Positions 938 to 28,601 of a DNA stretch of 64,000 nt are shown in pieces. Within the stretch, counting starts at the first letter, position 1. Each line of letters starts with the position of its first letter. The notes beneath the pieces are model-generated. The model saw nothing but the letters and a program-made list of their open reading frames with translations. It had not been told where the DNA came from and did not search any database. This DNA comes from a virus: IMG/VR virus record IMGVR_UViG_3300042371_000472, positions 1-64,000 of that record; one strand, given 5' to 3'. The translations under genes and the position numbers were made by a program.

Positions 938-1360
938 ATGGCAGCATTCCACCACTTAAATGATCAACTGTTTATGCCAAAGAGTTGGTTGCGCTCACTA
1001 CCAGTAGACAATGAACTAGATATCGCTGATGTGGAAGATGCAGGTAGTCGCCAAATCCGAGACCCATATACAAATGAACGGCGTTACACGACACCTGAGG
1101 ATGAATTTTGGGATCGTAAGGGTAATGAGGCAATTAATAGTGGAGTATATAAAAGCGTACAGAGACATGGCATTGTAAATCCCGTAGAACTAGGTGTATC
1201 TGGTAGGACCATAGAAATCAAAAATGGGTACCACAGGGTGGCATCCGCTGATGATCACTCATTTATACCTATTACTTATACAAAAAAAGATCAAGTGGAT
1301 GGTTTACCCATACATTATAACCGTTATAATGAAAATCCTGCATATCCACGCTCTGAGTAA
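938..1360 (+). CDS. ParB/sulfiredoxin N-terminal-domain protein
   Basis: SVQRHGIVNPVEL...IKNGYHRVASA matches ParB-N G-x3-P...GxHR pattern. Confidence 0.75.
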   Translation: MAAFHHLNDQLFMPKSWLRSLPVDNELDIADVEDAGSRQIRDPYTNERRYTTPEDEFWDRKGNEAINSGVYKSVQRHGIVNPVELGVSGRTIEIKNGYHRVASADDHSFIPITYTKKDQVDGLPIHYNRYNENPAYPRSE

Positions 1361-1386
1361 CCCTATTCTGATGTAAAATAGTCAGT
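1361..1386 (+). promoter_or_regulatory. Promoter motif CCCTATTCTGAT-TAAAAT, probably leaderless
   Basis: TAAAAT 1374-1379, 7 nt before ATG 1387. Confidence 0.7.
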
Positions 1387-1857
1387 ATGGCATCTAAAAT
1401 CGTATATCACGGCACATTAAGTGAAGAACCACCCCATGAGCATGGTTATCCCTTCCACGCTGGTACCTTGGCATCTGCTGATGAACGACTAGCAGACGAA
1501 ATTCAGAACGGTGATGGCCCCTACCAAACTGGTGTCGCCAGTATCCATGCCTACGAAGTAGATGACGCCACGCCCACCTCACGCCATGTATGGGGCGACC
1601 CCCTGTTTCGTAAAACGGGTCGTGATTATGATGCACATAGGGCGGTACCCGAACATAAAGAGAACCGTATCTATCCGTATAAAAATGCTCATGAGGATCG
1701 TGGCTCCACTTCTTATGTCATCCCCAGTAATTTTGTGGGTAAGCATGTAAAACACCTCGGTGTACAGTTCCAGAGAATTGTTAACCCCTACGATGGTCGT
1801 GCTGAAGCCGTATATAACGCTATGTCCGTAATGTCTGGTGGGAGGTACAAGTCATGA
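1387..1857 (+). CDS. ADP-ribosyltransferase-like protein (ART-PolyVal-like)
   Basis: N-terminal VYHGT, FHAGT-x3-A-x2-R, C-terminal YKNAHEDRGSTSYVI. Confidence 0.6.
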   Translation: MASKIVYHGTLSEEPPHEHGYPFHAGTLASADERLADEIQNGDGPYQTGVASIHAYEVDDATPTSRHVWGDPLFRKTGRDYDAHRAVPEHKENRIYPYKNAHEDRGSTSYVIPSNFVGKHVKHLGVQFQRIVNPYDGRAEAVYNAMSVMSGGRYKS

Positions 1858-2324
1858 GAGCACACATCAGCAAACAATTCGCCAAAGTGACTAGAAATCC
1901 TGGCGATAACCCTGAACAGTTGCAGATGTTCATGCGTCCACATGAGATTTTGAACAAAATATACAGTTTTTCTGATGATTTAGGTGATGATGATGCATTA
2001 GAGCACCTTGATGACCCCAGAGGGTACCCCAACAGCCAATTACACGCCGATAAACTGGGAGAGGCTATAGATTCAGGATTACACGATGGCATTGAGACTG
2101 ATGGAATTCTGAACCATGTCGTCCTAGAGACATCCCCGCACACAAGTAAATTCCGTATGGGTAATGGTCACCACCGACTGTCAGTTGCTTTAGACCTAGA
2201 GAGTAAGGGTCATCAGGTAGATATTCCCGTGATCCATGATAATAACTTTATGTACGACACCACTGATGAGTACAAGCATATGTACGGAAGACCAAAAAAG
2301 TACTTTGGCTATAAAGAGAACTAA
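1854..2324 (+). CDS. ParB/sulfiredoxin N-terminal-domain protein
   Basis: GIETDGILNHVVL...MGNGHHRLSVA; ATGA overlap with upstream gene. Confidence 0.75.
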   Translation: MRAHISKQFAKVTRNPGDNPEQLQMFMRPHEILNKIYSFSDDLGDDDALEHLDDPRGYPNSQLHADKLGEAIDSGLHDGIETDGILNHVVLETSPHTSKFRMGNGHHRLSVALDLESKGHQVDIPVIHDNNFMYDTTDEYKHMYGRPKKYFGYKEN

Positions 2325-2367
2325 TTCTGATATATAATAGTAAGCATTACCCGATAAGGAGTTCATC

Positions 2368-2745
2368 ATGGCTATGAAAAAAGCAATCGCAAAGCGTCCA
2401 GCACACCTATCCGAACAGTTCCAGCCTAAGGGCCGTTCTGAACTAACCCGCCTGAGTGCCGCTCTTGGTGACTACTTGAATACTGAGCGGGAATACACGC
2501 ATATGGAATATGATAACGAGTATGCCAACGAAGAACCTGAGGACACTGAGGGTGAAGAAGCATTCCGCAGGGAGTACCCCATTGCAAGCCCACAGCGCCA
2601 AGATGCTGGTGCAAACATTAGTGACTCCATAGACGAGCATGATGCCGCTGATATGCTTCAGACCTACCGTCGGAATCGTGATTCAGGTCAGAACCAGCAG
2701 TCCCAACGCGAAGATATCCGTCACGCTTACAAGTACTACCGCTGA
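2368..2745 (+). CDS. Acidic hypothetical protein, paralog of 2757-3188
   Basis: AAGGAG RBS; shares KKAIAK-x-PAH-x2-EQF, GRS-x-LTR, DML-x2-YR-x-NRD, REDIR-x-AYK with next gene. Confidence 0.8.
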   Translation: MAMKKAIAKRPAHLSEQFQPKGRSELTRLSAALGDYLNTEREYTHMEYDNEYANEEPEDTEGEEAFRREYPIASPQRQDAGANISDSIDEHDAADMLQTYRRNRDSGQNQQSQREDIRHAYKYYR

Positions 2746-2756
2746 GGAGAAACATC

Positions 2757-3188
2757 ATGGCTGTTAAAAAATCAATGGCAGGAAAGATTGCCGCTGAGGC
2801 AAAGTCTGCACCGCTGAAGAAGGCAATCGCCAAGAAACCAGCGCATATGCCCGAACAGTTCCCTAACGAGAACCGTAGTTTCCGTGGTCGTTCTGACCTT
2901 ACCCGCTTCAGTCGTGTACTTGGTGGTTACTTGGAAGACTCACGGATGGATCATGCAGACCAGTATGACGAAGGTGAGGCTGAGGAAGAGTTCCGTATGT
3001 CGCACTCTATCGCCGGCCCCATGCGCCAGCGCAACAGCAAGTTCATCACTGATGAGATTGGTGAATACGACGCAGAGGATATGCTCCGCGAGTACCGCCA
3101 GAACCGTGATGCTGGCGACACGGACCAGTCGTACAGCCGTGAGGATATCCGCGAGGCTTACAAAAACCGTGCCGACTACACAGGCTGA
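2757..3188 (+). CDS. Acidic hypothetical protein, paralog of 2368-2745
   Basis: GAGGAG RBS; alignable to upstream gene over most of its length. Confidence 0.8.
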   Translation: MAVKKSMAGKIAAEAKSAPLKKAIAKKPAHMPEQFPNENRSFRGRSDLTRFSRVLGGYLEDSRMDHADQYDEGEAEEEFRMSHSIAGPMRQRNSKFITDEIGEYDAEDMLREYRQNRDAGDTDQSYSREDIREAYKNRADYTG

Positions 3189-3237
3189 TTAGGGTTACTA
3201 ATCCTTCCGCGGAGTAGTAAAAATTTGCCGCTTAATT

Positions 3238-3366
3238 ATGTCTGATGATAAATGCGATACCTCCACACAGTGTGTCTATTGCGGTGGAGAACTGCGTCCT
3301 GAGCATGCACACTATAAGTGCGTTGATTGTGGGCAGAGAGATGCCTGTTGTGAGGGCATCTACTAA
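3238..3366 (+). CDS. 42-aa zinc-ribbon mini-protein (not in ORF track)
   Basis: MSDDKCDTSTQCVYCGGELRPEHAHYKCVDCGQRDACCEGIY; two CxxC pairs. Confidence 0.7.
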   Translation: MSDDKCDTSTQCVYCGGELRPEHAHYKCVDCGQRDACCEGIY

Positions 3367-3388
3367 CTATTTAAGGTAAAATAGTTCT

Positions 3389-4300
3389 ATGGCAAAAGAC
3401 AAAAAAGAAGATGCAATTAGGTATTCGCGCATCTCTCCTGATACTCCCGGTAGTTACACTGCCCTGTCTCATGACTATGTAGGCGGTAACGAGGACATAC
3501 CAGATCGCCGTAGAAGAATTATTGATTACATGGCACATGACCGTGATGGTAACTCTCTGGTATATGCCCAAGTAGTGCAAACGCACGGTCAGACATTCAC
3601 TCGCATGACTGCTCCCGAGAGACAAGTGCGCCAGCCCCCGAACCACCTAGAGCACCTAGTCCCTCCTCACCGTAGGGTGGTAAATAACCCCCCTGGTCGC
3701 CCAATGCCTTCACCTGGTGATTTTGTGCATGTAGCGCAAACACCTATTGTTGATTTAGAACGCACAGATGCTAAATCTAAGCCAGTTCCTGGTAAAGACG
3801 ATTACTTTCATGATGGGACTAACACTCGTCCCGCAAAACCCGGTGAGCAATTAGTAATGTTTGGTATAGAGCATAAGCCTACTCGTAGACAGATAACGAG
3901 TTTATATGCCCGAGATAGTACGGCTGGCAAAATTGCGACTATGAATATCCTTGGTATGGCTGATAATGCATCTATGGATGCCCTTGGTCGTGGCTTAATG
4001 CCTGATGATAACTTGTCAGAGCATAGTTTAGGTTTAGTTAAAAAGTTACATAAAAAAGGTGCTATTCCTGAGGAAGATTTACCTGATAAATTAATTCAAG
4101 GTAACGACATGGATTTTTCTGATGCCGCACGAGTTTTAGATACCCAACATACAAGTAAATTTGACAATGGTGAACTTATTAACCTTAATCATCGCCTACC
4201 GCATGCAAAGGCTCGTATTCGCCAAATCTTAGGACGCTCAGTACCAACTCTTAATACTGAACCTAAGAACGAACAGTTACAACTGGAGGGTTTTGAATGA
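3389..4300 (+). CDS. Paralog family member 1, divergent GNAT-like fold
   Basis: LYARDSTAGKIATMNILGMA...LMPDDNLSEHSLGLVKKLHKKG; ends EQLQLEGFE; TAAAAT 6 nt upstream of ATG. Confidence 0.6.
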   Translation: MAKDKKEDAIRYSRISPDTPGSYTALSHDYVGGNEDIPDRRRRIIDYMAHDRDGNSLVYAQVVQTHGQTFTRMTAPERQVRQPPNHLEHLVPPHRRVVNNPPGRPMPSPGDFVHVAQTPIVDLERTDAKSKPVPGKDDYFHDGTNTRPAKPGEQLVMFGIEHKPTRRQITSLYARDSTAGKIATMNILGMADNASMDALGRGLMPDDNLSEHSLGLVKKLHKKGAIPEEDLPDKLIQGNDMDFSDAARVLDTQHTSKFDNGELINLNHRLPHAKARIRQILGRSVPTLNTEPKNEQLQLEGFE

Positions 4301-5049
4301 CTCGCTATTCTCGCTATATACCACCCAGTGATAAAGAGCAAGGTAGAACATCCGACTATGTACCACACGGTGACCAATATGGTGGAATGGATGATTACTT
4401 CGCACATGATGAGTCTGGTAAAGCCATTGCTATGGCTAGAATTTCCCATGATCCAGGACATACCAGTACAGTCATGGATATCTATGGCGCTAATGCAAAC
4501 ACAGGATTAGCCGAAACTACATTAATTGCTGAGGGACAAAGGGTGCATGATGATACTGCCCTTGATTGGCAAGATGGTTTAACTCGCCCCGCTCAGTCAG
4601 GGGAGCAGTTAGTAATGTTTGGAACTTACCACAGACCAGCACGATCTCAGGTGCATGAGTTATATGCCCGCGATAGTTTGTCTGGTAAGACAGCCGCTAT
4701 GAACTTGGTGGGTATGGCTGATATTGCCTCTACAACTACAACTGGTAAGCACCTAAAGCCATCAGGCAATCTTTCTCCTAATAGTAAGTCATTAGTTGAT
4801 AAGTTGCATAAATCTGGTGCTATTTCTGCTGAGGATATGCCAGGAAGGGTATTTGATAATGCTATTGACTTTAATTATGCAAATCAAATGCTTGATCGTT
4901 ACCCACATAGTAACCAGACCCCGCGCCAAGACTTAAACTCACGATTGCCTCACGCAAAGGCTCGTATTCGTCAAGCGATGGGACGATCTGCACCAAACCT
5001 TAATACAGAGCCTAAATCTGAACAACTTCAGTTGGAGGGTTTTGAATGA
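4297..5049 (+). CDS. Paralog family member 2, divergent GNAT-like fold
   Basis: LYARDSLSGKTAAMNLVGMA...LKPSGNLSPNSKSLVDKLHKSG; ends EQLQLEGFE. Confidence 0.6.
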   Translation: MTRYSRYIPPSDKEQGRTSDYVPHGDQYGGMDDYFAHDESGKAIAMARISHDPGHTSTVMDIYGANANTGLAETTLIAEGQRVHDDTALDWQDGLTRPAQSGEQLVMFGTYHRPARSQVHELYARDSLSGKTAAMNLVGMADIASTTTTGKHLKPSGNLSPNSKSLVDKLHKSGAISAEDMPGRVFDNAIDFNYANQMLDRYPHSNQTPRQDLNSRLPHAKARIRQAMGRSAPNLNTEPKSEQLQLEGFE

Positions 5050-5771
5050 CTAAATATTCATTAAAACAAAAAACTTACTCTACAGTAAATGATAAAGAAA
5101 ATCAAAAACGATTTACTTATCTTGATTATGTAGCGCACAACGATAAAGGTAAGGCAATTGCAAAATTAAATGTAACTCACGAGCCAGAGATTAATGCTAC
5201 TCAACAAACTGGTTTCTATACTGGGAAACCAGTAGCAGACATGGAGATGACACATACAGATACTCCTGTTAATGAATCTAACTGGAATAGTACCCCATAT
5301 ACCCGCCCCGCCATGTCTGGTGAACAAATGGCAATGTTTGGTTATAGGCATGTACCCGCAAAAAGAACAGCATCGGGATTTTATTCAGCAGAGGGTTTGG
5401 GCGGTAGAACTGCCGGAATGACATTACTTGGTATAGCAGATAATGCCTCTACTGAGGCAACTGGTAGAAATATTGTCCCATCAAGTAACCTTTCCCAACA
5501 TAGCGGTGGTTTGGTTGACCGATTGCATAAAAGTGGTCATATTTCTGCTGAAGATATGCCAGAAAACAGATTATCTAATACCCATAGTTTTGAGCAGTCA
5601 GACAGTTTTTTAAGACAGGAACACAAAAATCTGGTTGAAATGGCAGGTTCTAGTTACCACTTAGATGATTTATCTTCCCGAGTACCCGCCGCTCGTACCC
5701 GTATACGAGACCTACTTGGAAATGCTAAAAAGGGTGAAGAGCATAAGCAATTGAGCCTTTGGGATGACTGA
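5046..5771 (+). CDS. Paralog family member 3, divergent GNAT-like fold
   Basis: GLGGRTAGMTLLGIA...VPSSNLSQHSGGLVDRLHKSG; ends KQLSLWDD. Confidence 0.6.
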   Translation: MTKYSLKQKTYSTVNDKENQKRFTYLDYVAHNDKGKAIAKLNVTHEPEINATQQTGFYTGKPVADMEMTHTDTPVNESNWNSTPYTRPAMSGEQMAMFGYRHVPAKRTASGFYSAEGLGGRTAGMTLLGIADNASTEATGRNIVPSSNLSQHSGGLVDRLHKSGHISAEDMPENRLSNTHSFEQSDSFLRQEHKNLVEMAGSSYHLDDLSSRVPAARTRIRDLLGNAKKGEEHKQLSLWDD

Positions 5772-6402
5772 CAAAAGAATTCACCACTTCTACCACCTAT
5801 ATGCGGATGGTAACTGGCAGATGTGTGTAGTTGATCATATCCGCGCATTAGTGCAATATGGTTTGTACGAGAATCTTGCTTCATTAAATATTGGCTTTGT
5901 GGGAACACCTCAGAACATTCTTATGGCTCAGGAATACCTTACTTTAAGGGGATTGACTTATAATGTTGCCGCAACCAGCCCAGATGGATGGGAACAAGTA
6001 ACTCTTGACCCACTTTACGAAATGGCTGTCAATGAACCTGATGCATACTATGTGTACGCACATACCAAGGGTGCGGCTAACTTTGCCCCAATCAACGAAG
6101 TCTGGCGTAATGGTATGACGCGCTTTAACATTGTGAACTGGCAAAGAGCCGTAGAAGTATTAGATGAGGGTTACACCACTGCTGGTTGTCATTACTACCC
6201 CATTAACTTTGACAATCCCAATCCATTTTGGGGTGGCAACTTTTGGTGGGCGACAGGTAAGCACATCACCATGCTAGGTATCTGCGAAAAAGACCACCGC
6301 CACCGCGCTGAAGCATGGGTGGGCAGGATTAACGAAGACCCGTACTACAGACACTACGACCTATTTCCAGTTGGTATTGGAACTGTAGCGGAACCCTTTT
6401 AG
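5764..6402 (+). CDS. Putative glycosyltransferase-like protein (HTKG...WR...GNFWW family)
   Basis: YAHTKG, WRNGM, FWGGNFWWAT, RHRAEAWVG; pattern reminiscent of RgpF-like proteins. Confidence 0.5.
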   Translation: MTDKRIHHFYHLYADGNWQMCVVDHIRALVQYGLYENLASLNIGFVGTPQNILMAQEYLTLRGLTYNVAATSPDGWEQVTLDPLYEMAVNEPDAYYVYAHTKGAANFAPINEVWRNGMTRFNIVNWQRAVEVLDEGYTTAGCHYYPINFDNPNPFWGGNFWWATGKHITMLGICEKDHRHRAEAWVGRINEDPYYRHYDLFPVGIGTVAEPF

Positions 6403-6902
6403 TTCATATTAATGGCGTCAACATAGATGTCACCATGTGTGCGATCAACAATAATATCCACACACTTCCAATTGGTCTCAACAAGAGCCTTGGATAGGTC
6501 TTCTACATCCACATTGCCGTAAAACTCATCAACTGGCATACCAGGTGTACCAACTGCGGCATGGGGGGCGCGTGGGTCAGTAGCGCAAGTAACTAGGAGT
6601 GTTCCACCAGGATTAATTGCCTTTCCCAAGGTAACTAAAATCTTACGGTAATCCTCAGGAGTGACATGCTCAAACACCTCCGTGCAGAGTCCCATGTCCC
6701 ATTTACGAGTCGGCTCCCAATTTGTGGCGTCAGCCACAATGTCTACGCCTTTACCACCAATATGATCAAGAGTTACATATTTGGACTTAGGCCAGAGATC
6801 ACGGGGTGTCCCGTTAATGTTTCTGCCACCAATATCAATGATTGACTTGGGAGATATCTCTAATGACTTATTGACTAAGAATGTCCAGGCTTCTGCATGC
6901 AT
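6399..6902 (-). CDS. Class I SAM-dependent methyltransferase
   Basis: IIDIGG motif I, VDIVADA, CTEVFEH, PGGTLLVT; start reassigned to MHAEAW at 6902. Confidence 0.85.
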   Translation of the reverse strand: MHAEAWTFLVNKSLEISPKSIIDIGGRNINGTPRDLWPKSKYVTLDHIGGKGVDIVADATNWEPTRKWDMGLCTEVFEHVTPEDYRKILVTLGKAINPGGTLLVTCATDPRAPHAAVGTPGMPVDEFYGNVDVEDLSKALVETNWKCVDIIVDRTHGDIYVDAINMN

Positions 6903-6923
6903 ATACATAGTATAATCATAAAT
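6903..6923. promoter_or_regulatory. Bidirectional leaderless promoter with overlapping -10 boxes
   Basis: AGTATAAT: plus TATAAT 6911-6916 then ATG 6924; minus TATACT 6914-6909 then ATG 6902. Confidence 0.7.
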
Positions 6924-7604
6924 ATGCCGATTGAGTACCGTAGATTCCATACACCAGCACAAGACTCAGGTGGTAGGCGTTCACCCGCAAAAACTACCTA
7001 TTTTGCGTTTGACCCACATAGTAAGCGAGATTTGGGGTTAGTTCAGGTAGAGCACCACGACGACACCCAGTGGACTAAGAACGAACCATCAGATAAGAAA
7101 TACTACCCTAAGGATTACAACACAAATCCCGATGCTCGTGTTATTAGTCAGGGGCGTTTGTTCTCTGATTATGGTAAACCAGCACACCGTAAATTGTCCA
7201 TGATGGCTGGAACTATGGGTGGTAATAACACCACGGCAATGAGTCTCATGGCTCTTGCTCACCAGGACGCCACTGAGTCTGGTGTGCCGTTAATTCCTGA
7301 CCATTCTCTGACACGGGACAGCCACAGAGTTGTCCGCCATCTTGCAAAGTTTGGTGTTGTTGACAAACGCGATGTGCCAAAGCGAGCAACGGTACCACCA
7401 GGGCGAGTCACGCCCCTCTTTAGCAATTACATGCACGAGTATGATGGAACTGAAGGGGTAGAGGCAATTCACCCTGATGTTGTTCGTGAGGCGCGCAATA
7501 CATTGGTGGGTCGCGTACGACGCAGTAAGCAAGAGAAAGCGCCTAAGACTAAGCGCGGTCAACCGATTGAGGGACAGCAATCATTGTTTGGAGAGGACCA
7601 ATAA
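6924..7604 (+). CDS. Paralog family member 4, divergent GNAT-like fold
   Basis: GGNNTTAMSLMALA...LIPDHSLTRDSHRVVRHLAKFG; ends GQQSLFGEDQ; start reassigned to MPIEY. Confidence 0.55.
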   Translation: MPIEYRRFHTPAQDSGGRRSPAKTTYFAFDPHSKRDLGLVQVEHHDDTQWTKNEPSDKKYYPKDYNTNPDARVISQGRLFSDYGKPAHRKLSMMAGTMGGNNTTAMSLMALAHQDATESGVPLIPDHSLTRDSHRVVRHLAKFGVVDKRDVPKRATVPPGRVTPLFSNYMHEYDGTEGVEAIHPDVVREARNTLVGRVRRSKQEKAPKTKRGQPIEGQQSLFGEDQ

Positions 7605-7849
7605 TGAACGATATTACAAACATTAAAGCCATCAGCATGCGGATTCTGGCAGTATTTGCCGCCTCAGCACTTGGTGTGGTTGGAGCGGGCGCTATTGCAG
7701 GTGTACCATTATGGAAAGCCTGCCTCATGGCTGGTATCGGTGGTATGTCCACAGTTATTGAAGGACTTGCGCGGGCATACATTGATGATGGTAAGTTAGA
7801 CGCTGGAGAGATCAATTCAGTGTTTGACAAGATTGAAAAGACGGAGTAA
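7604..7849 (+). CDS. Small two-TM membrane protein, holin candidate
   Basis: Two hydrophobic segments, charged C-terminus (DDGKLDAGEIN). Confidence 0.5.
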   Translation: MNDITNIKAISMRILAVFAASALGVVGAGAIAGVPLWKACLMAGIGGMSTVIEGLARAYIDDGKLDAGEINSVFDKIEKTE

Positions 7850-8400
7850 TGCCTGCTCACGAGTACATTAATAAAGACCAAACGCTATTTCATGGAACCA
7901 GCGGACACAATGTAAAGAGCATCCTTCAGCACGGTATATCACCCTCAGGTGATGATGTAATCGCAGGTATTCCTGGCGCATACATGACTACTCGTGAGGT
8001 TGACGCCCGTGCATGGGGTGACCATGTTGTCACGACACAGCCAACTCGTGCATTGCGTATCTATGGGGATATCAATGACGATCCACATTTAGAGAATCAG
8101 CGACAAACCACTCAGGCGTTAAATGACTACCATGACTATGGTAAATCTGATCCTGAAGAATGGTTAGATGATCACGGTGGTCACTTTGACATGAGCCATT
8201 ATGGTACGGGTCATCAGGCAGTCCATAATTGGGCAAAATCTAATAAGAACACTGAGAATGTTGCTGACACACTCTCAAGTTGGGGTTATCATGGCAACCG
8301 CGATAGTATCGCCGCGTGGAGTCCAGATGCAGATGTCACCATCTACAATCCGGAGGAACACTTAAAAGTGACTGGAATTAACGGTCCATCTTTTATATAA
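7849..8400 (+). CDS. ADP-ribosyltransferase-like protein (H-Y type)
   Basis: LFHGTS-x5-SILQHGI...GAYMTT-x4-A-x2-W. Confidence 0.7.
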   Translation: MPAHEYINKDQTLFHGTSGHNVKSILQHGISPSGDDVIAGIPGAYMTTREVDARAWGDHVVTTQPTRALRIYGDINDDPHLENQRQTTQALNDYHDYGKSDPEEWLDDHGGHFDMSHYGTGHQAVHNWAKSNKNTENVADTLSSWGYHGNRDSIAAWSPDADVTIYNPEEHLKVTGINGPSFI

Positions 8401-8451
8401 AAAGTAACTAAAAAGTAATATAAGAAAAAACTACACAATTAGGAGAATCAC

Positions 8452-8718
8452 ATGAGTTCTAACCTTATCCGCGAGCATCTCGCAAGTATCCACGACGATC
8501 TTTTACTAATGGATGGTCTGGATGATGCCATTATCGGCACATCACAAAGAATCAATGAGCCTGTGCTCGCCGTTTATAGTTGGGAAAAGATTATTACAAT
8601 CCTGACAGAGCGCGACAATATGGACTTTGAAGACGCTGTGGAGTTTATTGAATTCAATATCCTTGGCTCTTGGGTCGGAGAAAATACCCCAATTGTTGTC
8701 ATGCCTCTTGACTGGTAG
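8452..8718 (+). CDS. Conserved phage hypothetical protein
   Basis: AGGAG RBS; DGLDDAIIG...EDAVEFIEFNILGSWVGENTP pattern familiar from aquatic phages. Confidence 0.75.
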   Translation: MSSNLIREHLASIHDDLLLMDGLDDAIIGTSQRINEPVLAVYSWEKIITILTERDNMDFEDAVEFIEFNILGSWVGENTPIVVMPLDW

Positions 8719-8745
8719 AATAATCTCCAAAGTATTGGAGGCTAT

Positions 8746-9309: not shown

Positions 9310-9357
9310 TGATATATCGTGTAAAATAAAACCATACCGAAACACGGAGGTTTTATA

Positions 9358-19641: not shown

Positions 19642-19782
19642 ATGTCTAATGTACAACTAGATGTCAACAAGATTGTTGAATCGCTCGTCAACCAGATTTC
19701 ACAGCAGGCCCAGCGTATCGCTGTCCTAGAGGCTACGATTGATGCTATACAGAAAGCCAATAACGAGGAAGTTACTGAGTAA
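19642..19782 (+). CDS. 46-aa coiled-coil protein (not in ORF track)
   Basis: MSNVQLDVNKIVESLVNQISQQAQRIAVLEATIDAIQKANNEEVTE; AGGAG RBS. Confidence 0.6.
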   Translation: MSNVQLDVNKIVESLVNQISQQAQRIAVLEATIDAIQKANNEEVTE

Positions 19783-19784
19783 CT

Positions 19785-20045: not shown

Positions 20046-20056
20046 AGGAGATACTT

Positions 20057-20866
20057 ATGAATTACCCCTGCATCAAATTGGTGGTCCCAACCGCTCTCAA
20101 ACAGTATAAGAACGGTCAGTTAGCACCAAGCGTTTTGGCTTCCGTTAAAACTGGCGGAAAGATGTACGCACCAGTTGCAGAGCAATTCAATAAGTTGTAC
20201 GACGCCGCTCTCGCCGCTGGCTTCAAGTTGAAGAATGTGGGCGACTACCGCTCATTTGAAGGTCAACTAACAATGTTTATGGACCGCTATGTCACCGAAG
20301 ATACTGGTACTGGCGTTACACGCAAGTACGAGGGTAAGACATGGTACCTCAAGAAGGGTAAAGCCCCTTCAGCCGCTCCAGACCCCACGGGTCTCAAGGG
20401 TTCAAACCATGGCTGGGGTCTCGCAATTGACCTTGGTTATGATGTCAACGGCAAACTTACCTCAATGGGTGGCAAGTGTTTTGAGTGGATGTGCGCTAAT
20501 GCCCCCTCATATGGTTTCTACTTGCAGGGTTCTGACCCTAAGTCAAAAGAGTTTGAGGCATGGCACTGGCAGTACTGCCTCGGTGATGCCACCCCTAATG
20601 GCGCACCCGCTCCCGTAGCACCAGCCACCGCTCCTGCACCTGCTCCAGCAGGCGCACCCGCACTTACTTTTACTTACCCAGGAACACCCGTTAAGCAGGG
20701 TTCAAAGGGTGACGCCGTCAAGTTGGTTCAGGCAATCGTTGGCGCAAAGCCCGATGGTGACTTTGGTGCCAAGACCCATGAACTTGTCCGTAACTGGCAG
20801 AAGTCCAAGGGTCTTACTTATGATGGCGTTGTTGGTCCGACGACATGGAAAGCCATGTTCGGCTGA
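20057..20866 (+). CDS. Endolysin: peptidase M15 (VanY-like) plus peptidoglycan-binding domain
   Basis: YRS-x3-Q, SNHGWGLAID, EAWHW; PDGDFG / YDGVVGPTTW. Confidence 0.9.
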   Translation: MNYPCIKLVVPTALKQYKNGQLAPSVLASVKTGGKMYAPVAEQFNKLYDAALAAGFKLKNVGDYRSFEGQLTMFMDRYVTEDTGTGVTRKYEGKTWYLKKGKAPSAAPDPTGLKGSNHGWGLAIDLGYDVNGKLTSMGGKCFEWMCANAPSYGFYLQGSDPKSKEFEAWHWQYCLGDATPNGAPAPVAPATAPAPAPAGAPALTFTYPGTPVKQGSKGDAVKLVQAIVGAKPDGDFGAKTHELVRNWQKSKGLTYDGVVGPTTWKAMFG

Positions 20867-20872
20867 TAAACA

Positions 20873-21445
20873 GTGGCGACTAAAAAACGAGGATTAGGTC
20901 CAGCCGCCCTAAGTGTCTGGGACAGATTAGAACAAGGAAAAGAAGACGGTGGCTCTACGGGCCGCATAGATAAAACTACAGGCGCCCGTCTGCCACCTAC
21001 TGACCTTGCACAGGGGTTAAACGCTCTTATCCCAAGCGGTGGCGACTTTGAGGTCTACTGGGTACAACCAGTAGACCAGTACTACATGGGTCCGACCAAG
21101 AGTTCTTGCGTCGTGGCTCATGTGTTCATTCCCGTTGCTACTAGGGATGAAGTAACTGAAGACATGGGTATTGGGGACAGCGTTGATGAGGGCATAGATA
21201 TCCTTTCTAAGCAATTCTCTAGAATACGAAAGACTGACCGATCCAAGGGCGGTTCCTCATATAACATCCTCGGATATGTATATGTGATGTTTCGTAACCG
21301 CGCTGGAGTCACCAGTGGCGTTTACAAATATGGACCCATGCCGTTAGACATCTACCGCAATTATCGTGAGTACAGTTCTAAGGGTAAGGGTATTAGACAG
21401 ATTCTTGAACCATTTGGATACACTAAGAGCAATTGGCCCGTTTAA
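20873..21445 (+). CDS. KTSC-domain-like protein with insertion
   Basis: KSSCV...YVYVMF...VYKYGPMPLDIY...SSKGK. Confidence 0.55.
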   Translation: MATKKRGLGPAALSVWDRLEQGKEDGGSTGRIDKTTGARLPPTDLAQGLNALIPSGGDFEVYWVQPVDQYYMGPTKSSCVVAHVFIPVATRDEVTEDMGIGDSVDEGIDILSKQFSRIRKTDRSKGGSSYNILGYVYVMFRNRAGVTSGVYKYGPMPLDIYRNYREYSSKGKGIRQILEPFGYTKSNWPV

Positions 21446-21460
21446 CAACAAGGAATTACA

Positions 21461-21868
21461 ATGAGAGCATTTCTAGCCATGTCAGCATGGTTGGCGTCAA
21501 TCGTTTGGGTAATAGTAAGCGTTATCCTTATGTCCCCCATGACAGGCATCGCCCTACTGATTAGTTGTTTCATATCGTTCCTAATATTCAGGGATACCAT
21601 GAACGCCGTGCAGGCAGTCGGTCCCGTGTACTGGATTTGTAGAGATATTGTTCCCCCTAATACCCGCCTTTTTGCGTGGGGGTTTATGCGCCAGACATCT
21701 GCTCCTTGGCGCGTCGGTAAAGGCATCCAAATACGCTTTAAAAAGCACACCTTTCAAATCGGACTTTCTCGTAAAGGTAAGCAGGTATCTGATGACACTG
21801 GCTTGCTATATGCTGTCCAAGGGCGGTATCTTGATGACAAGCCTAAGGAAATCAGGGACTGGAAATGA
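21461..21868 (+). CDS. Membrane protein
   Basis: Two N-terminal TM segments; AAGGA RBS. Confidence 0.65.
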   Translation: MRAFLAMSAWLASIVWVIVSVILMSPMTGIALLISCFISFLIFRDTMNAVQAVGPVYWICRDIVPPNTRLFAWGFMRQTSAPWRVGKGIQIRFKKHTFQIGLSRKGKQVSDDTGLLYAVQGRYLDDKPKEIRDWK

Positions 21869-22086
21869 TGAGACGCAAACCTAAGACTGATCTCCCAAAG
21901 ATTGCCCGACTCCAAAAGATGACTAAGAGTGAGTTAGCCACATGGGGAGAGCAGTGCCTGATCTACACCTGCCAGTCATTTGATAACTGGCGTTACCGTG
22001 ATGGGACTAATGCTGAGGTACTCCAGGCCGCAGAAGTATTCCACGAGATATTAAAAGAAATCGCCTCCAGAGATATCAGTAAGTAA
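21865..22086 (+). CDS. Hypothetical protein upstream of terminase
   Basis: ATGA overlap, colinear. Confidence 0.65.
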   Translation: MMRRKPKTDLPKIARLQKMTKSELATWGEQCLIYTCQSFDNWRYRDGTNAEVLQAAEVFHEILKEIASRDISK

Positions 22087-22119
22087 TACTGCCTTGATTT
22101 TTGTTTTATACTTACTCTT

Positions 22120-23694
22120 ATGAGTGAAGAATCAGATGTTGAGGATACGGAATACAACGAAGACATTGGTGACTATCAAGAGGAAGAACTAGACGAAACA
22201 TCTACGGAATTCGTTGACCAACTGGTCATGAAGTTAATCGTCTTTACCGAAGAGTTCTGTAATGTCACCCTGTTCCCCTATCAGGTCCCGATTGCCTATC
22301 GGATCATTGAGTCCATCGTCCTTGGCGACGGTGAAGAACTAACCCTCGTTGCGACCCGTCAGTCTGGTAAGTCTGAGGTTCTTTCTAATGTCATGGCATC
22401 CATGATGGTCATTCTCCCGCGCCTGTCCAAGGTCTACCCAACATGGCTGGGTAAGTTTGAGAAGGGCTTTTGGTGTGGTGTGTTTGCCCCCGTTGAGGAT
22501 CAGGCTGACACGGTGTTTGGTCGTATCGTCAGCAAGTTGACCAGCGAACACGCCATGAACTTCCTCCTTGATCCTGAGATTGATGATAAGGCGTCATCAG
22601 GTGGCGCTCGCGGTAAGGGTCGTATTATCAGCCTGAAGAAGTCAGGGTCACTCTGCCGTATGCAGACCTGTAACCCTAAGGCAAAGATTGAATCTAAGAC
22701 CTACCACTTCGTCATGATTGACGAAGCACAAGAGGCCGATGAGTTCATGATTTCTAAATCAATTAAGCCGATGTTAGCGTTCAACAACGGTTCTATTGTT
22801 CTTACGGGCACGGCTACTAGGAATAAGTCTTACTTTTATAAGATGATCCAGTTTAATAAGCGCCGTGACACAAACGCCAGACGGGGCCACAGACAGGCGC
22901 ACTTTGAGTATGACTGGCGAGTTGCCGCTAAATACAACGATAACTACGGCAAGTTCATTGCTAAGGAAAAGACCCGTATCGGGGAAGACTCCGACGAGTT
23001 CCAAATGTCCTACTGCAACAAGTGGATTTTGGAAAAGGGTATGTTTGTCACCGAGGAACGCCTAGAGCGCCTGTACGACCCGTCTATGGCTATTGTGAAG
23101 AAGTGGTGGCGTAGCCCCATTGTCATGGGTATAGATGTGGCGCGAACCAATGACTCCACCGTGGCTACAGCCGTATGGGTGGACTGGGACCACCCTGATG
23201 GGTTTGGTTTCTTTGAGCACCGCGTCCTTGACTGGCTGGAAATCAACAATGTTGAGTGGGAACAGCAGTACTTTGAAATGATTGACTTCATCCGTAACTT
23301 TGATGTCTACCGCATTGGTGTGGACTCTCAAGGTGTGGGTGGCGCTGTTACCGAGCGACTACAACTCTTGCTCCCTGAGATTGAGGTAGTCGCTGTCTCG
23401 TCTGACGCCAAGACTCAGAACGAGCGTTGGGTACACCTGACCGAATTAATGCAACGAGAGCAGTTGATTATTCCTGGGCACTCCAAGGCGCGCCGTACCC
23501 GATCATGGAAAAAGTTCAACCAGCAGATGTGCGACCTTGAAAAGGTTTACCGTGGCCCGTACCTACTAGCCGCCGCTCCTGATGAGAAGGGTGCATTTGA
23601 TGACTACCCCGATTCTCTAGCAATTGCTTGCAGTATGACGGCATTAGAAGTAATGCCAATGGTGGAGTCATTTAACTCTCCCTTTTATAGGTAA
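22120..23694 (+). CDS. terL: Terminase large subunit
   Basis: Walker A RQSGKS, Walker B VMIDEAQ, RNase H MGIDVA and DDYPDS. Confidence 0.93.
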   Translation: MSEESDVEDTEYNEDIGDYQEEELDETSTEFVDQLVMKLIVFTEEFCNVTLFPYQVPIAYRIIESIVLGDGEELTLVATRQSGKSEVLSNVMASMMVILPRLSKVYPTWLGKFEKGFWCGVFAPVEDQADTVFGRIVSKLTSEHAMNFLLDPEIDDKASSGGARGKGRIISLKKSGSLCRMQTCNPKAKIESKTYHFVMIDEAQEADEFMISKSIKPMLAFNNGSIVLTGTATRNKSYFYKMIQFNKRRDTNARRGHRQAHFEYDWRVAAKYNDNYGKFIAKEKTRIGEDSDEFQMSYCNKWILEKGMFVTEERLERLYDPSMAIVKKWWRSPIVMGIDVARTNDSTVATAVWVDWDHPDGFGFFEHRVLDWLEINNVEWEQQYFEMIDFIRNFDVYRIGVDSQGVGGAVTERLQLLLPEIEVVAVSSDAKTQNERWVHLTELMQREQLIIPGHSKARRTRSWKKFNQQMCDLEKVYRGPYLLAAAPDEKGAFDDYPDSLAIACSMTALEVMPMVESFNSPFYR

Positions 23695-23743
23695 ACTATG
23701 GTACGATAAGTGGAGATAAACCCCTACTAGGAGGAATCCATAG

Positions 23744-24145
23744 ATGGCAGTTGCACCTGTTCCCATGTTCCCAGAAAAAGGCACCCCAGTGTTTGAGCGT
23801 TCGTACGCCCCAAGCATTCCGGGTAACCGTGGCCCGCTCCGCTTTGAAGAAGGCGTAGCCACCGATACCGATGTCCCTTATGACTTCGGCGTTGGTGCTT
23901 ATGAGGACACCGCCCCGTCGCCCATGCGACAGAACCATAACAACCCTGAGATGTTCTACAAGTACGCTGAGGAAACAATGCGCGAGCGCGCCCACATCGG
24001 GTCGTCTTCGTGGATTGAGGCCCCGACCGTTCTTGGTGAATTCGTACAGGGTTCAATGGCTGGAGACTACATCCCGCAGTTTGAATACTCGTACAACACG
24101 GGCGGTCACATGAACCGCCCGAACCCAACAGTCGTTTACGACTGA
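23744..24145 (+). CDS. Conserved phage protein (probably virion-associated)
   Basis: AGGAGG RBS; GPLRFEEGVATDTDVP motif. Confidence 0.7.
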   Translation: MAVAPVPMFPEKGTPVFERSYAPSIPGNRGPLRFEEGVATDTDVPYDFGVGAYEDTAPSPMRQNHNNPEMFYKYAEETMRERAHIGSSSWIEAPTVLGEFVQGSMAGDYIPQFEYSYNTGGHMNRPNPTVVYD

Positions 24146-24147
24146 TC

Positions 24148-24621
24148 ATGGGTGATACCGGGAATTTCTCGGTAGTTGGCCCGGCACCGAGTAGTACATT
24201 CGGGTCATCCCCGGAACTGTCTAATTATCAGGCAGTTGCGGGGATGTTTCGTCGCGTCCAAAAAGGTAATGAATTAGTTACGGCGCGCGCTGACAACTTT
24301 GGTATTGTTACCAAGATTTCTAGCCCCTTCGTGCCTAGCCCCCTCGGTGGCAAAGTAGCACTCAATATGCCCCGCTATGCATCAGGTATTGGTGAATTCG
24401 TTCTTGATCCGATGCAGAACTTCAAGTCTGAGAAGTTAGACCTAGAGGGCCGTAAGTACGGCAACTCTACGATTACTAACCCAGGTCAGAAGTTTGATTC
24501 TAATAAGTTACGCCGTAAAGGCGTCTCATCTTATAACCGCTATAAGGCTGGTAAGACTTCTTATATGCCAGGCCGATTTGGGCATAGTTCATACAAGCCC
24601 GGAAAGATTCAGGCGTTCTGA
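24148..24621 (+). CDS. Basic hypothetical protein
   Basis: Colinear ORF. Confidence 0.65.
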   Translation: MGDTGNFSVVGPAPSSTFGSSPELSNYQAVAGMFRRVQKGNELVTARADNFGIVTKISSPFVPSPLGGKVALNMPRYASGIGEFVLDPMQNFKSEKLDLEGRKYGNSTITNPGQKFDSNKLRRKGVSSYNRYKAGKTSYMPGRFGHSSYKPGKIQAF

Positions 24622-26051
24622 TGGCTAAGAAAAAGAAAAAGTTAATTGCACCAGTCCGCGATACGACGCGCACGGATAGCCCTGTTGATCCTGGATACCC
24701 AATCCCAGCAAAAGCACCATCATACAGAGATATTCCTACTAAAAAAGGTAGAAAAGCCATTGATACTGCAATGTCACAGGCTGGTAAGAATGCGTATGGG
24801 TCACCAATACGCATGGCTGATGCTGTGGCAACTCGTGTAAATGCTCTTCAAGCGGCTCTGGCTCGCACAACCTTTCAAGTCGGACTTGGTAATCAACCTA
24901 TGGGGTCACACATTCCCCCAGGATTAGGTTGGTATGGTGAGCACCAACAGGCATACAGAGAGGCATCAGAAAGAACAGGTACCCGTATTGGAAGCCTTAT
25001 TGACGCTGGTGCTGTAGCCAGTGCTCGTAACACTCCTGAGAAAGAACGATTAGCCGCTGAATCAGCAGGTTATATCGCCGCTAACCCTGATCGTAAAGTA
25101 ACAATTACTGATGAGATGGCTCCGCACATGGGTAATCCAGATATTAAACCGGGGGAACACCGCATCGGGACAGGCCGCGACGGTGATGGTTTATCAGACG
25201 AAGATGTAGCGCATATCGGTTACGCAGAGACCCAAGCACTTAAGGGTTTGGGTCATGTAAATAAACAAGGAAACGCCCTTAGCGATAAAAGATTTACTCC
25301 AAGAGAATTTACTGGAGTAACTTTGGATTCGGCGGGACGCGATGTCGGTGCTAAGGTTGTCGCTGTCGCTCGCGGAAAAACATTTGATGAGGTTACTAAG
25401 GGAGCGACTCCTAAGACTCGTAACTTTTCACGAGCAACTCATTTAATGAGTCGTGAAGAAACTGCATATAACTCAGAAGTTCTTAGGCGCATAGCGTCAG
25501 TTCCTACCTTTGTAGAAGGTGACGGAAAGGGTGGAACAAATTATTCCTATCAGGAACATCTTTTTTCTCCATATGAAAAAACTGCGGCTGAGATTGCAAA
25601 CTTTGATCCAAGCACGGCAGATGAAAGTGTTGAAGATTATGTGATGAACGAAATGAGTGCCCATGTAGCCGCGTCTAAGGGTAAAACTGGTAAAACGGCT
25701 AGAGAAGCACAAGAAATTGTAAAACCACCAAAGGGTAAAAATGTATTTGACCCTAGTTTTGATCCTGAGGAAATGCGTCATGCATTTAATGAGGAATCTA
25801 CGCGACGGGCCGCTATGCAAATTGGTATTGCTGGGGAAAGCCTAACTACGCGGGGCGCTCAGGCTATTTCATGGGTGGAACGCCGACGACATACTCTTGG
25901 TGAAGATAAAGAATACAACAAAGCCCAAAAGCAACTTGCTAAGGATGCCAAGAAGGCAAGTAAGGCAAAAGAAAAAGCACCCACTCCCCCAACTGTTACT
26001 GAGGATAAAGGACCTACTCCTGAAGAAAGAGGACAACTTACATTGTTCTAA
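24621..26051 (+). CDS. Divergent HhH/DNA-glycosylase-like phage protein with C-terminal QLTLF
   Basis: GLGWY...GAVASAR...PKTRNF...AA-x3-G...AQAISWVERR. Confidence 0.45.
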   Translation: MAKKKKKLIAPVRDTTRTDSPVDPGYPIPAKAPSYRDIPTKKGRKAIDTAMSQAGKNAYGSPIRMADAVATRVNALQAALARTTFQVGLGNQPMGSHIPPGLGWYGEHQQAYREASERTGTRIGSLIDAGAVASARNTPEKERLAAESAGYIAANPDRKVTITDEMAPHMGNPDIKPGEHRIGTGRDGDGLSDEDVAHIGYAETQALKGLGHVNKQGNALSDKRFTPREFTGVTLDSAGRDVGAKVVAVARGKTFDEVTKGATPKTRNFSRATHLMSREETAYNSEVLRRIASVPTFVEGDGKGGTNYSYQEHLFSPYEKTAAEIANFDPSTADESVEDYVMNEMSAHVAASKGKTGKTAREAQEIVKPPKGKNVFDPSFDPEEMRHAFNEESTRRAAMQIGIAGESLTTRGAQAISWVERRRHTLGEDKEYNKAQKQLAKDAKKASKAKEKAPTPPTVTEDKGPTPEERGQLTLF

Positions 26052-26117
26052 TTGTTATCGCAATAACAGTACTTTCTAGGCTCTGATAACCTTTCCTTCC
26101 CAGTAGAAGGAGAGAGT

Positions 26118-26276
26118 ATGCGCCCGTCAGATGCCGCATTAATTACACAATATCTTAAGAGACTTGCGCCCCGTGGACACACAGAGGAGCAAGAGGTGCT
26201 ACGGTTGATATCAGTTCTTGGAGGAATCCAGAAAATGTCACACAATAAGGAGCAGAAAGTTGAGCGAGTTAAGTAA
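26118..26276 (+). CDS. 52-aa hypothetical protein (not in ORF track)
   Basis: AAGGAG RBS; MRPSDAALITQYLKRLAPRG... Confidence 0.6.
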   Translation: MRPSDAALITQYLKRLAPRGHTEEQEVLRLISVLGGIQKMSHNKEQKVERVK

Positions 26277-26526
26277 TGAATTGCTCTCGCGTGGTCCAAT
26301 TAATTGGGGGTGTGGTATTGCCACCCTCAGGGACGAACTTCACGGAGATGAACTAACCGCACTAAACACCGCATTAGAAAGAATTATGACTGACCCAGGA
26401 AAGGGTAGGTCTAAGGTATATTCTTCTATGTGGTTAGCGAATGTGCTAGTTAAGCACGGACATCAAATTAGCCGAAGCACCATAGAACGACATATAAAGG
26501 GGAAGTGCAGTTGTGGCAAGCCTTAG
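26260..26526 (+). CDS. HTH / Zn-binding small protein
   Basis: ISRSTIERHIKGKCSC; TTG start after AAGGAG. Confidence 0.6.
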   Translation: MSELSNELLSRGPINWGCGIATLRDELHGDELTALNTALERIMTDPGKGRSKVYSSMWLANVLVKHGHQISRSTIERHIKGKCSCGKP

Positions 26527-27658
26527 TGATGATTTAGGAACACCCCCAGCAAAAGCAACATTGGGAAAGATTGCGGAGTTATTAAACCGCAATAACATTG
26601 ATGTTGAAGAAGTGGGGTCAATCAAGCGCGTATCCCTCTACCAATCACTCACTAAGAATGACCAAGGTCAGGCTGAGGTTCACGACCTCATGGGTATCCA
26701 ATTCAACCCCAAGTGGGCTGAAGGGCCTGATTGGCCCGTGGTACAACCAGGGCCGTCAATCAAACTCCCAGTACGCAAAGTAATACAAAGTAATACAGAG
26801 GGATACAAAGTAGCGGTTATCCTCCCCGACATGCAGATCGGTTACTACCGAAATGCTGACGGGAGCCTGGAACCCACCCATGATGAAGAGGCTCTCTCTA
26901 TCTCCATGGCAATTATCAAGAAGTTGAATCCTGACCGAATTATCATGGTCGGTGACAACCTTGACTTTCCTGAGTTCGGTAAGTACCGTCTCAGCCCAGC
27001 ATACGCAATTACTACTCAGGCATCTATTGACCGCGCCACAACACTATGCGCGGAACTTCGTGCCGCCGCACCAAACGCCGTCATAGATTGGATTTCAGGT
27101 AACCATGAAGAACGACTCGTCAACTTCATCTTGGACAATGCAAAGGTTTCGTTCGGCTTGCGTCGGGGGAATACTCCGGATTCTTGGCCTTGCCTTAGTG
27201 TGCCTTATCTATGTCGTTTCAATGATTACGGGGTTAATTATGTGGCTGGCTACCCTGCTGGACAAGTATGGATTAATCAAAGGCTCAAAGTCATCCACGG
27301 AAACAAGGTCAGGTCTAACGGTTCAACCGCCCACGCCTACCTCAACGACAGCAAGGTATCCGTCATCTACGGGCACATTCACCGTAGGGAATGGGCTGAA
27401 CGGTCACGCGAGGACTGGGATGGGGCAAAGACCATCATGGCGGCGTCACCAGGGACACTAGCCCGCTGTGACGGTGCTGTACCCAGTACCAAGGGCGGTA
27501 TGGACCTAGACGGTCGCCCAATGACCATTGTGGAGGACTGGCAACAGGGTCTAGCCGTTGTCTCTTATGAGGATGGCGAAGGCGCCTTTTGGTATGAACA
27601 GATACCTATCCATAATAAGACCGCTTTTTTCCGTGGTAAGGTTTACTCTCCGGAATGA
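26513..27658 (+). CDS. Calcineurin-like metallophosphoesterase
   Basis: PDMQ, GDNLD, GNHE, IHG, GHIHR motifs. Confidence 0.9.
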   Translation: MASLSDDLGTPPAKATLGKIAELLNRNNIDVEEVGSIKRVSLYQSLTKNDQGQAEVHDLMGIQFNPKWAEGPDWPVVQPGPSIKLPVRKVIQSNTEGYKVAVILPDMQIGYYRNADGSLEPTHDEEALSISMAIIKKLNPDRIIMVGDNLDFPEFGKYRLSPAYAITTQASIDRATTLCAELRAAAPNAVIDWISGNHEERLVNFILDNAKVSFGLRRGNTPDSWPCLSVPYLCRFNDYGVNYVAGYPAGQVWINQRLKVIHGNKVRSNGSTAHAYLNDSKVSVIYGHIHRREWAERSREDWDGAKTIMAASPGTLARCDGAVPSTKGGMDLDGRPMTIVEDWQQGLAVVSYEDGEGAFWYEQIPIHNKTAFFRGKVYSPE

Positions 27659-27954
27659 TTGGGGTGGGTCGTATGTCTGACAAGGAAAACCTTAAGGCAG
27701 TTGTTGTCGTTTGGGATGACGCGTTTGATGGCCCTGGTGGATGGATTGATCCAGCCAAGTATGAACCACGCATTATTGACCCCATTACTATTGGCTGGGT
27801 TATAGATGAACATGCCGAGAAGTACCTGACCTTGTACTCGTCCTTCTATTATGACGATGATGGTATACTTATTTGTTCAAATCCTATGCATATTCCTCGT
27901 GGTATGATTAGGTCTATTACTCCCGTAAAGATAAAGAAGTCAGGGGACAGTTGA
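27655..27954 (+). CDS. Conserved phage hypothetical protein
   Basis: VVWDDA-x5-W...TIGW...IPRGMI. Confidence 0.7.
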   Translation: MIGVGRMSDKENLKAVVVVWDDAFDGPGGWIDPAKYEPRIIDPITIGWVIDEHAEKYLTLYSSFYYDDDGILICSNPMHIPRGMIRSITPVKIKKSGDS

Positions 27955-28601
27955 TGGGTCTACGCCGTAGGAATAGAGGATCACGCGCTGATACTCGTCG
28001 TGGTGAATTGTCACCCGCTGAAATTGCAAAGCATGGACCACAAAAGCCTGATGATGGGTTTTCTATACGCACATCTGGTCGTGGTGCAGGTGGTCCTGCT
28101 CGTAATGTTTTTTCTGTTGGTTATGCACCCGAATCAGGTCGCGGGGCTGAAGTTCCAGTAGACCCCTCTGAACCTGCAACTACCCAACTTCTTGACTTTA
28201 ACCGACGAAACGCAGATGTACTGGGTTCCCCAGGCGCAAATATGATTCAAGGTGGCTGGCATGACCCGTCAACTGGCATTGTCCAGCAAGATACCTCTGT
28301 AGCACTACCAAAAACTGCTGGTGGTCTTGAAGCCGCTATGCAAATTGGGGCATTGGGTCGTCAAGATTCCATAGGTAATGTTGGCCCTAATGCCAAAACC
28401 CCATATATCGGTGACATAAAAATTCCTACGCATCTACATCCAGAGCAATTTTGGCATGAGGGAACTTCACCCCTTGTGACAGATAAGGGCATTGACCCCA
28501 CATCGGGACGACGCCGTGTAAGTATTCTTCCACCGCGTCAAGAAATGGTCGGCGTAGAAGCATCAATTTTAGCCGAACAACTCGGATTACCTAAGGATTA
28601 A
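27951..28601 (+). CDS. Hypothetical protein, possible SAM-lyase/DUF3293-like fold
   Basis: GGWHD...QDTS...EAAMQIGALGRQDSI; contains HLHPEQF. Confidence 0.4.
   Translation: MMGLRRRNRGSRADTRRGELSPAEIAKHGPQKPDDGFSIRTSGRGAGGPARNVFSVGYAPESGRGAEVPVDPSEPATTQLLDFNRRNADVLGSPGANMIQGGWHDPSTGIVQQDTSVALPKTAGGLEAAMQIGALGRQDSIGNVGPNAKTPYIGDIKIPTHLHPEQFWHEGTSPLVTDKGIDPTSGRRRVSILPPRQEMVGVEASILAEQLGLPKD

Follow-up and report, generated by a model that had tools for sequence, protein, structure and literature searches.

A portable QF peptide on unrelated small enzymes of a fast-changing phage gene cluster and its possible role in docking

Why should small proteins of unrelated fold, encoded side by side in a phage genome, carry the same short peptide ending in Gln-Phe? 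The question is raised by a stretch of viral DNA of 64,000 nucleotides (positions 1 to 64,000 of the IMG/VR record IMGVR_UViG_3300042371_000472), here called the window. It is the first part of a 92,482-bp phage contig which is 98% complete and whose first 134 bases (window 1-134) recur at genome positions 92349-92482, as expected of an assembly that is circular or of a genome with a short terminal repeat. An initial annotation listed seven such peptides and proposed that they are a capsid-loading or processing signal. Here we show that unrelated small enzymes encoded in one fast-changing gene cluster share the QF peptide as a portable short linear motif, which is kept by selection at the protein level. 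We further suggest, with a probability of roughly 0.4, that the peptide could be a docking motif for a common partner, most likely in the infected cell.

Recurrence of the QF peptide in the window and in related phages

All seven peptides are present in open reading frames (ORFs) of the plus strand (Table 1). The consensus first given for them, H-[LIM]-x2-3-QF, which we call the strict motif, describes five copies (g1387, g1854, g2368, g2757 and g27951); g938, however, reads QLF and g20873 has no histidine. A position near the N-terminus had been called usual. This holds for g938, g1854, g2368 and g2757 but not for g1387, whose copy is close to the C-terminus, nor for g27951 and g20873, where the peptide sits in a turn and in a variable loop, respectively. 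In an alignment of the paralogs g938 and g1854, the peptide HHLNDQLF pairs with EQLQMF of g1854 and not with HISKQF; it is kept as MVAFHHLNDQLF in the relative L043 at 55% identity. The L-S-x-x-QF part of the g20873 peptide is kept in homologs of 33-36% identity (LSQRQF, LSSAQF) and is absent from others. Gene calls are the longest ORFs throughout, and the start of the gene for the ADP-ribosyltransferase (ART)-like protein of the relative L034 is uncertain.

Within this genome the strict motif is observed 5 times against 0.20 expected from shuffles within proteins. With two pairs of paralogs (g2368/g2757 and g938/g1854) the copies of the window collapse to four lineages. Scoring all patterns of this form on shuffled proteomes yields a best one that is equally extreme in about 10% of them, and the top-scoring pattern of the real proteome is E-Q-x2-3-M-F and not the QF motif. 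Because of the paralogy and because the pattern was chosen post hoc, the evidence from the window is only suggestive. An explanation in which the peptides have no function in common, and reflect paralogy, the picking of a pattern after the fact and strands that belong to the fold (the first strand of ART and ParB proteins, the catalytic strand of g1387), could account for it.

The relatives speak differently. IMG/VR holds several of them, among these the complete 99-kb genome G006 with a capsid protein 86% identical to that of our phage. Among the families from relatives without a homolog in this genome (n = 54), two have the strict motif where 0.07 are expected (P ~0.002), and both lie within the same gene cluster. 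We then pooled this genome, the 99-kb relative and six further loci into 261 ORF families. The strict motif occurs in 9 of these 261 families against 0.37 under the null (maximum 4 in 1000 shuffles); as the null uses one representative per family it is somewhat low, though by less than a factor of two given a total of 462 proteins. In seven families the motif lies at most 35 residues from a protein end (null 0.17, maximum 2). As a control we took 42.8 thousand residues encoded near the head genes in eight relatives; a relaxed form of the motif is found there in the g27951 homolog alone. The comparison with a shuffled background, proposed earlier as a check, is thus weak for the window (about 1 in 10 shuffles) and gives a clear excess for the relatives. 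The QF peptide is not random, its recurrence is replicated out of sample, and the excess is specific to the enzyme cluster plus g27951. Near-matches to a relaxed pattern in the N-arm of the capsid protein (LRFEQF) and in the scaffold (MPMDQY) were set aside, since that pattern is common and such matches are expected by chance.

Table 1. Copies of the QF peptide, associated elements and head genes. Positions are nucleotides of the window; features without positions are from relatives.
Feature	Position	Strand	Length (aa)	Peptide or element	Remarks
Promoter-like 14-mer	918..931	+		TTCTGATATATAAT	Ends 6 nt before the g938 ATG
g938	938..1360	+		HHLNDQLF, N-terminal (950-973)	ParB-like paralog of g1854; variant in QLF rather than QF
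g1387	1387..1857	+	156	HLGVQF, residues 123-128 (1753-1770)	Predicted ART fold; 28 residues from C-terminus
g1854	1854..2324	+	156	HISKQF, residues 4-9 (1863-1880)	ParB_N-like (lead)
Promoter-like 14-mer, identical copy	2325-2338	+		TTCTGATATATAAT	29 nt before g2368, ahead of AAGGAG ribosome-binding site
g2368	2368..2745	+	125	AKRPAHLSEQF; core HLSEQF, residues 13-18 (2404-2421)	Acidic
g2757	2757..3188	+	143	AKKPAHMPEQF; core HMPEQF, residues 30-35 (2844-2861)	Acidic; N-terminus Lys/Ala-rich
g3389, g4297, g5046, g6897	3389..7604	+		Tails ending EQLQLEGFE, KQLSLWDD, GQQSLFGEDQ	Four paralogs; C-terminal tails
g7849	7849..8400	+		N-terminus MPAHEYINKDQTLFHGT	Second ART/PARP-like protein; weak Pfam PARP and Tpt1 matches
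g20873	20873..21445	+	190	ILSKQF (21200-21217)	In variable insertion; no H
Large terminase	22120-23694				PHROG match
g27951	27951..28601	+	216	HLHPEQF, residues 161-167 (28431-28451)	Alpha/beta; directly upstream of portal gene
Portal	28607-30280	+			PHROG match
Scaffold homolog	30334-31119	+			32% identity to annotated scaffolding protein of Streptomyces phage LuckySocke
Major capsid protein	31163-32272	+			PHROG match
133-aa protein, one relative			133	Begins MNPMRHMSTQF	Between ART and ParB-like genes
122-aa protein, same relative			122	Internal SHILSGQF	Between ART and ParB-like genes; Cys-His-Asp residue pattern by eye
Two g3389-type paralogs, G006				AKKAHMGPQF, GRPAKHMGPQF	C-terminal tails, ~20 residues from end
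ParB-like protein, G008			162	ESIAHLSQQF	N-terminal
213-aa protein, G008			213	SKSHMSSGQF	N-terminal

Selection on the peptide and its spread over different folds

The copies differ in their codons (Ser AGC or TCC, CAC/CAT, CAG/CAA) and are preceded by unrelated DNA, which places the selection on the peptide and rules out an element at the DNA or RNA level. In the acidic family (g2368/g2757) the block KKAIAK-x-PAH-x3-QF is invariant while the remainder is about 50% identical, so that the tag is the most conserved part of these proteins. In the g1854 family, residues 7-31 are invariant in 13 homologs (71-84% identity) and the first 31 residues are nearly so. The g27951 family keeps IP-x-HL-x3-QF in about 9 of 17 representatives, and an exchange of the histidine for aspartate accompanies the loss of QF. 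When profiles of the acidic family, of the C-terminal part of g1387 and of the N-terminal part of g1854 are compared, the best local match falls on the motif (E = 0.015-0.05); a tandem duplication or a common module of about 35 residues is not established at these values.

Five further families with the strict motif, absent or untagged in the window, were found in the relatives, all in the same hypervariable enzyme cluster, whose content turns over fast between relatives of the same lineage. The relative encoding the 133-aa and 122-aa proteins has the motif in six consecutive genes. Over all genomes, unrelated small proteins bear the peptide at the N-terminus, in a tail at the C-terminus or within an exposed loop. 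The ART-like paralogs carry one copy each at different ends: g1387 near the C-terminus and the L034 protein near its presumed N-terminus (HMSRQF), the latter without the copy at the g1387 position. Other ART-like proteins have the N-terminal variants KLHQTQF, KGNKGNQF and MRKRQF. In G006 (L079, 75158-76027, minus strand) a ParB-like protein begins with MPIKGNRGGQF and an ART-like protein with MAIKGNKGNQF, that is, two different folds with nearly identical starts of 11 residues (M-x-I-K-G-N-x-G-x-Q-F). Read from these sequences, the best consensus is one or two basic residues followed by H-[L/I/M]-[S/G/P]-x-Q-F, with Q-F as its constant part.

None of the tagged proteins has a match in Pfam or PHROG. 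For g1387 an AlphaFold2 model (predicted local distance difference test, pLDDT, 74 overall and about 90 at the motif, from a shallow alignment of 5 sequences) gives top Foldseek matches that are each weak and all belong to the ART superfamily (RES, cholix, pertussis, diphtheria, ParT, tankyrase). The model thus supports an ART fold for g1387. Its V-K-H-L-G (window 1747-1761) aligns with V-E-Y-L-G of the 226-aa paralog from L034 (L034:1555-2235), which looks like the usual catalytic Glu-aromatic strand of ART proteins; judging from this alignment, g1387 may have lost the catalytic glutamate where the QF peptide arose. The assignment of g1854 to ParB_N is a lead only, from language-model and model-structure neighbours in the ESM Atlas, and PDB sequences contained nothing meaningful for this family. 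The model of g27951 is better (pLDDT 87.7, with an alignment of 17 sequences, still shallow) and places the motif where a variable loop begins, in a short turn that connects two strands. This fold has no match in the PDB. In BFVD, however, it matches predicted phage proteins and recurs as a single domain of phage proteins of 767-1102 aa which are annotated with Zeta-toxin or XkdF domains, while fused or longer, polyvalent homologs of g27951 were not found by sequence.

Polyvalent proteins are long proteins of phages and conjugative elements (Iyer et al. 2017, PMC5512222), and part of their effector-domain repertoire may be present here, ART by model and ParB_N as a lead. In the initial annotation the listed domains were ParB, ART and GNAT. 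Of these the ART fold stands for g1387 and ParB_N is the lead for g1854, whereas the GNAT label of the g3389 family has no Pfam match behind it. The tagged proteins are all of a single domain and 120-230 aa long, so that none joins the at least two effector domains of a polyvalent polypeptide; each enzyme is instead a separate small gene, without a MuF anchor. That small enzymes of the polyvalent-protein kind, unrelated to each other, carry a portable tag, as was proposed, is supported by the predicted ART fold of g1387, by the fold of g27951 within long phage proteins and by the ParB_N lead.

How does the explanation without a common function fare with these data? It can draw on the paralog pairs, on the g1387 copy within a confidently predicted strand (the 122-aa protein perhaps being a similar case), on the tag of the ART-like proteins, whose phenylalanine abuts the strand leading to the catalytic H-G-[ST], and on those relatives in which the strict motif is missing (see below). 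It does not account for the recurrence out of sample in five further families of one cluster, the same peptide in disordered-looking C-terminal tails of G006, the near-identical N-terminal peptides on two folds in that genome and the fact that the acidic family is most strongly conserved in its tag block. We therefore regard it as unlikely.

Possible docking in the infected cell or loading into the head

The QF peptide has a companion. C-termini of the cluster also bear peptides of the form QLxΦ[F/W], that is QLSLWDD, QQSLFGEDQ, EQLQLEGFE and QLTLF as the last residues. Bacterial sliding-clamp-binding motifs, QL[SD]LF and variants, are placed N-terminally, internally or C-terminally and bring many unrelated proteins to one hub; QLKLF, QLTLF and QLSLW of the cluster fit their consensus. 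In three families the QF peptide stands just before a peptide of the QLxΦ[F/W] type. Two proteins of G008 have QF directly before the clamp-like peptide (GQFAEQLPMF and, at the C-terminus, SQFEQLKLF), and in g1854 EQLQMF starts 11 residues after HISKQF. The g3389 family has both in exchange: a tail that carries QLxΦF in our phage bears the QF peptide in its G006 counterpart. Pro, Lys and Glu abound in these tails. The internal GEQLVMFG of the four g3389-type paralogs is conserved within the fold of distant relatives (DQLKMF, PSELF) and for this reason was not counted as a terminal tag.

A peptide of the same type is present away from the cluster. A 476-aa protein in the interval between terminase and portal (window 24621-26051), without match in Pfam and PHROG, has a Lys/Pro-rich tail and at its C-terminus GQLTLF, a textbook-looking clamp-binding motif. 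A sliding-clamp gene was not found in the phage genome.

Clamp-binding motifs are of 5-6 residues with a glutamine and a terminal aromatic residue and occur at any position, usually in a flexible tail. The QF peptide resembles them in that its position on the flexible ends of many unrelated proteins varies freely, which is typical of clamp-binding motifs and not of the T4 head-loading sequence. Its linkage to the clamp-like peptide means that docking onto a hub fits the data at least as well as head loading of the T4 type. A further hint comes from the DNA upstream. The 14-mer TTCTGATATATAAT has only two copies in the genome, before g938 and g2368, and these -10-like copies hint at transcription by the host polymerase that is not late. 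With the first copy ending so close to the start codon of g938 the message might be leaderless, and leaderless messages are common in Actinobacteria. A late-promoter motif shared between the cluster and the head genes was not found.

We suggest that the QF peptide docks the tagged enzymes onto one common partner. Docking would take place in the infected cell, with the QF peptide acting beside the QLxΦ[F/W] peptide or as its companion, and through the two peptides ART and ParB-like proteins, among other enzymes, would converge on one hub. Our slight lean towards a partner in the infected cell stems from the positional freedom of the peptide, the flexible tails rich in Pro, Lys and Glu, the linkage to the clamp-like peptide and the -10-like elements.

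The other candidate for the partner is the phage head. The peptide would then bind the scaffold, the portal or the inner face of the capsid while the head is being assembled, and the enzymes would be packed and injected with the DNA without any processing step. There is good precedent. The highly diverse internal proteins of phage T4 have only a conserved targeting sequence in common (PMC3012670), the N-terminal 30 residues of P1 DarB are a packaging signal (PMC9024508), and solo effector domains encoded together with late structural genes have been suggested to be packaged (Iyer et al. 2017, PMC5512222). The likeness to T4 (internal proteins and Alt) and to DarB lies in a short peptide placed on unrelated fast-evolving effectors, and T4 Alt is itself an ART. 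The sharing by unrelated effectors is found here too, with nine families that include ART-fold, ParB_N-like and acidic proteins. The enzyme set matches packaged phage proteins, known or predicted (PMC5512222); the fast turnover of the cluster is as expected of cargo in an arms race; the loop copies are in genes among the morphogenesis genes, g27951 adjoining the portal gene and g20873; and the g27951 fold is part of long multi-domain phage proteins.

The T4 signal, however, consists of about 10 residues at a free N-terminus, and the prohead protease cuts it off after loading onto the scaffolding core. The QF peptide is not restricted to a free N-terminus; it occurs also in C-terminal tails (G006), near the C-terminus of g1387 and in the loops of g27951 and g20873. 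Nor did we find a phage-encoded prohead protease that could remove it. The sole gene between portal and capsid encodes the scaffold homolog, as had been stated for the missing protease, and the protease families Peptidase_S78, ClpP, S49 and S77 have no match anywhere in the 98%-complete genome. A processing signal, the other half of the first proposal, is thus unlikely. A MuF protein is not detectable anywhere in the genome either, and head loading would need to work without anchor and proteolysis. Moreover, 20 kb separate the cluster from the head genes, putative promoters with a consensus-like sequence belong to the cluster itself, and the tags have no significant similarity to the scaffold C-terminus. 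Mimicry of the scaffold was rejected on this account, the best alignment being P = 0.02, uncorrected, for one of six. We consider head loading a doubtful possibility, yet one to be taken seriously.

That loading can do without proteolysis is known from encapsulins, whose cargo-loading peptides are short terminal peptides on unrelated enzymes and whose shell has the phage-capsid fold. Their sequence is a different one and encapsulin cargo genes adjoin the shell gene; binding of the QF peptide to the capsid protein is hypothetical.

Several observations weigh against docking in the infected cell. By its sequence the QF peptide falls outside the clamp consensus Q-L-x-L-F / Q-x-x-Φ-x-Φ: a hydrophobic residue precedes the glutamine, Q-F is followed by residues such as AKV, QPK, PNE or HVI, and there is no x-L-F thereafter, that is, no L-F two residues on. 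Many tagged proteins bear the QF peptide alone, without its companion, and to our knowledge no known hub reads H-Φ-x-x-Q-F. The model of g1387 puts the motif into a core strand (residues 121-132), a place in which it would not be available for docking. Both copies of the 14-mer contain a consensus -10-like element (TATAAT), and the promoter call is a consensus match only. The genes with the loop copies, g27951 and g20873, sit among the head-assembly genes, a location better suited to a role in the virion. Finally, the definition of the peptide is soft. L043-L045, although of the same lineage, lack the strict form and have the N-terminal variants SLHDDQF, KLHQTQF and PTGPQF; with these and the ART-like variants the robust core is reduced to [S/G/P]-x-Q-F after a histidine, a hydrophobic residue and basic residues.

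The peptide might also mark the enzymes for cleavage or degradation. Either a protease of the host or the 122-aa protein with its Cys...His...Asp pattern (noted by eye), which is encoded in the cluster of one relative, would trim or destroy them and so time their activity. N-terminal peptides of basic and hydrophobic residues can indeed serve as protease tags. In this genome, however, no protease is detectable, and the copies in internal loops and the one in a strand would be poor cleavage sites. We hold this to be very improbable.

It is finally conceivable, if rather improbable, that this siphovirus, which has no detectable prohead protease, uses both partners in turn: the QF peptide would load the small enzymes into the head in the manner of encapsulin cargo, and after injection the QLxΦ[F/W] peptide would take them to the host sliding clamp. 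If true, the injected arsenal and its target could both be read from the sequence.

Among phages, address peptides common to several proteins have been described in a few model cases; clamp-binding peptides have been described for bacterial replication proteins. The kind of element is thus known, be it one short peptide on the diverse effectors of a phage or one hub-docking peptide on many proteins. For this spelling, the mobility between protein ends and folds and the pairing with a clamp-like peptide we found no description in the literature consulted. A third, differently spelled address peptide in an uncultured group of actinobacterial phages would allow effector enzymes to be listed from sequence only, and it would also serve as a handle for fishing out the common partner. 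Should the partner be the head, cargo loading would be directed by a tag without proteolysis; should it be a host hub, phages would exploit a new docking site.

Relation to cultured phages and a further peptide of g20873

In its capsid protein the phage shares 60% identity with Streptomyces phage BRock and the relatives of BRock. For the tagged gene cluster no DNA match was found, and searches for homologs of g27951 and g1854 in cultured phages found none. As the cultured relatives lack these genes, a virion proteome covering them does not exist.

The protein g20873 carries another short peptide at its N-terminus (window 20873-20920). It reads KKRGLGPAAL and appears in relatives as KKRGLG or RRGLD; we take it to resemble the N-terminal peptide with which ParB proteins stimulate ParA.

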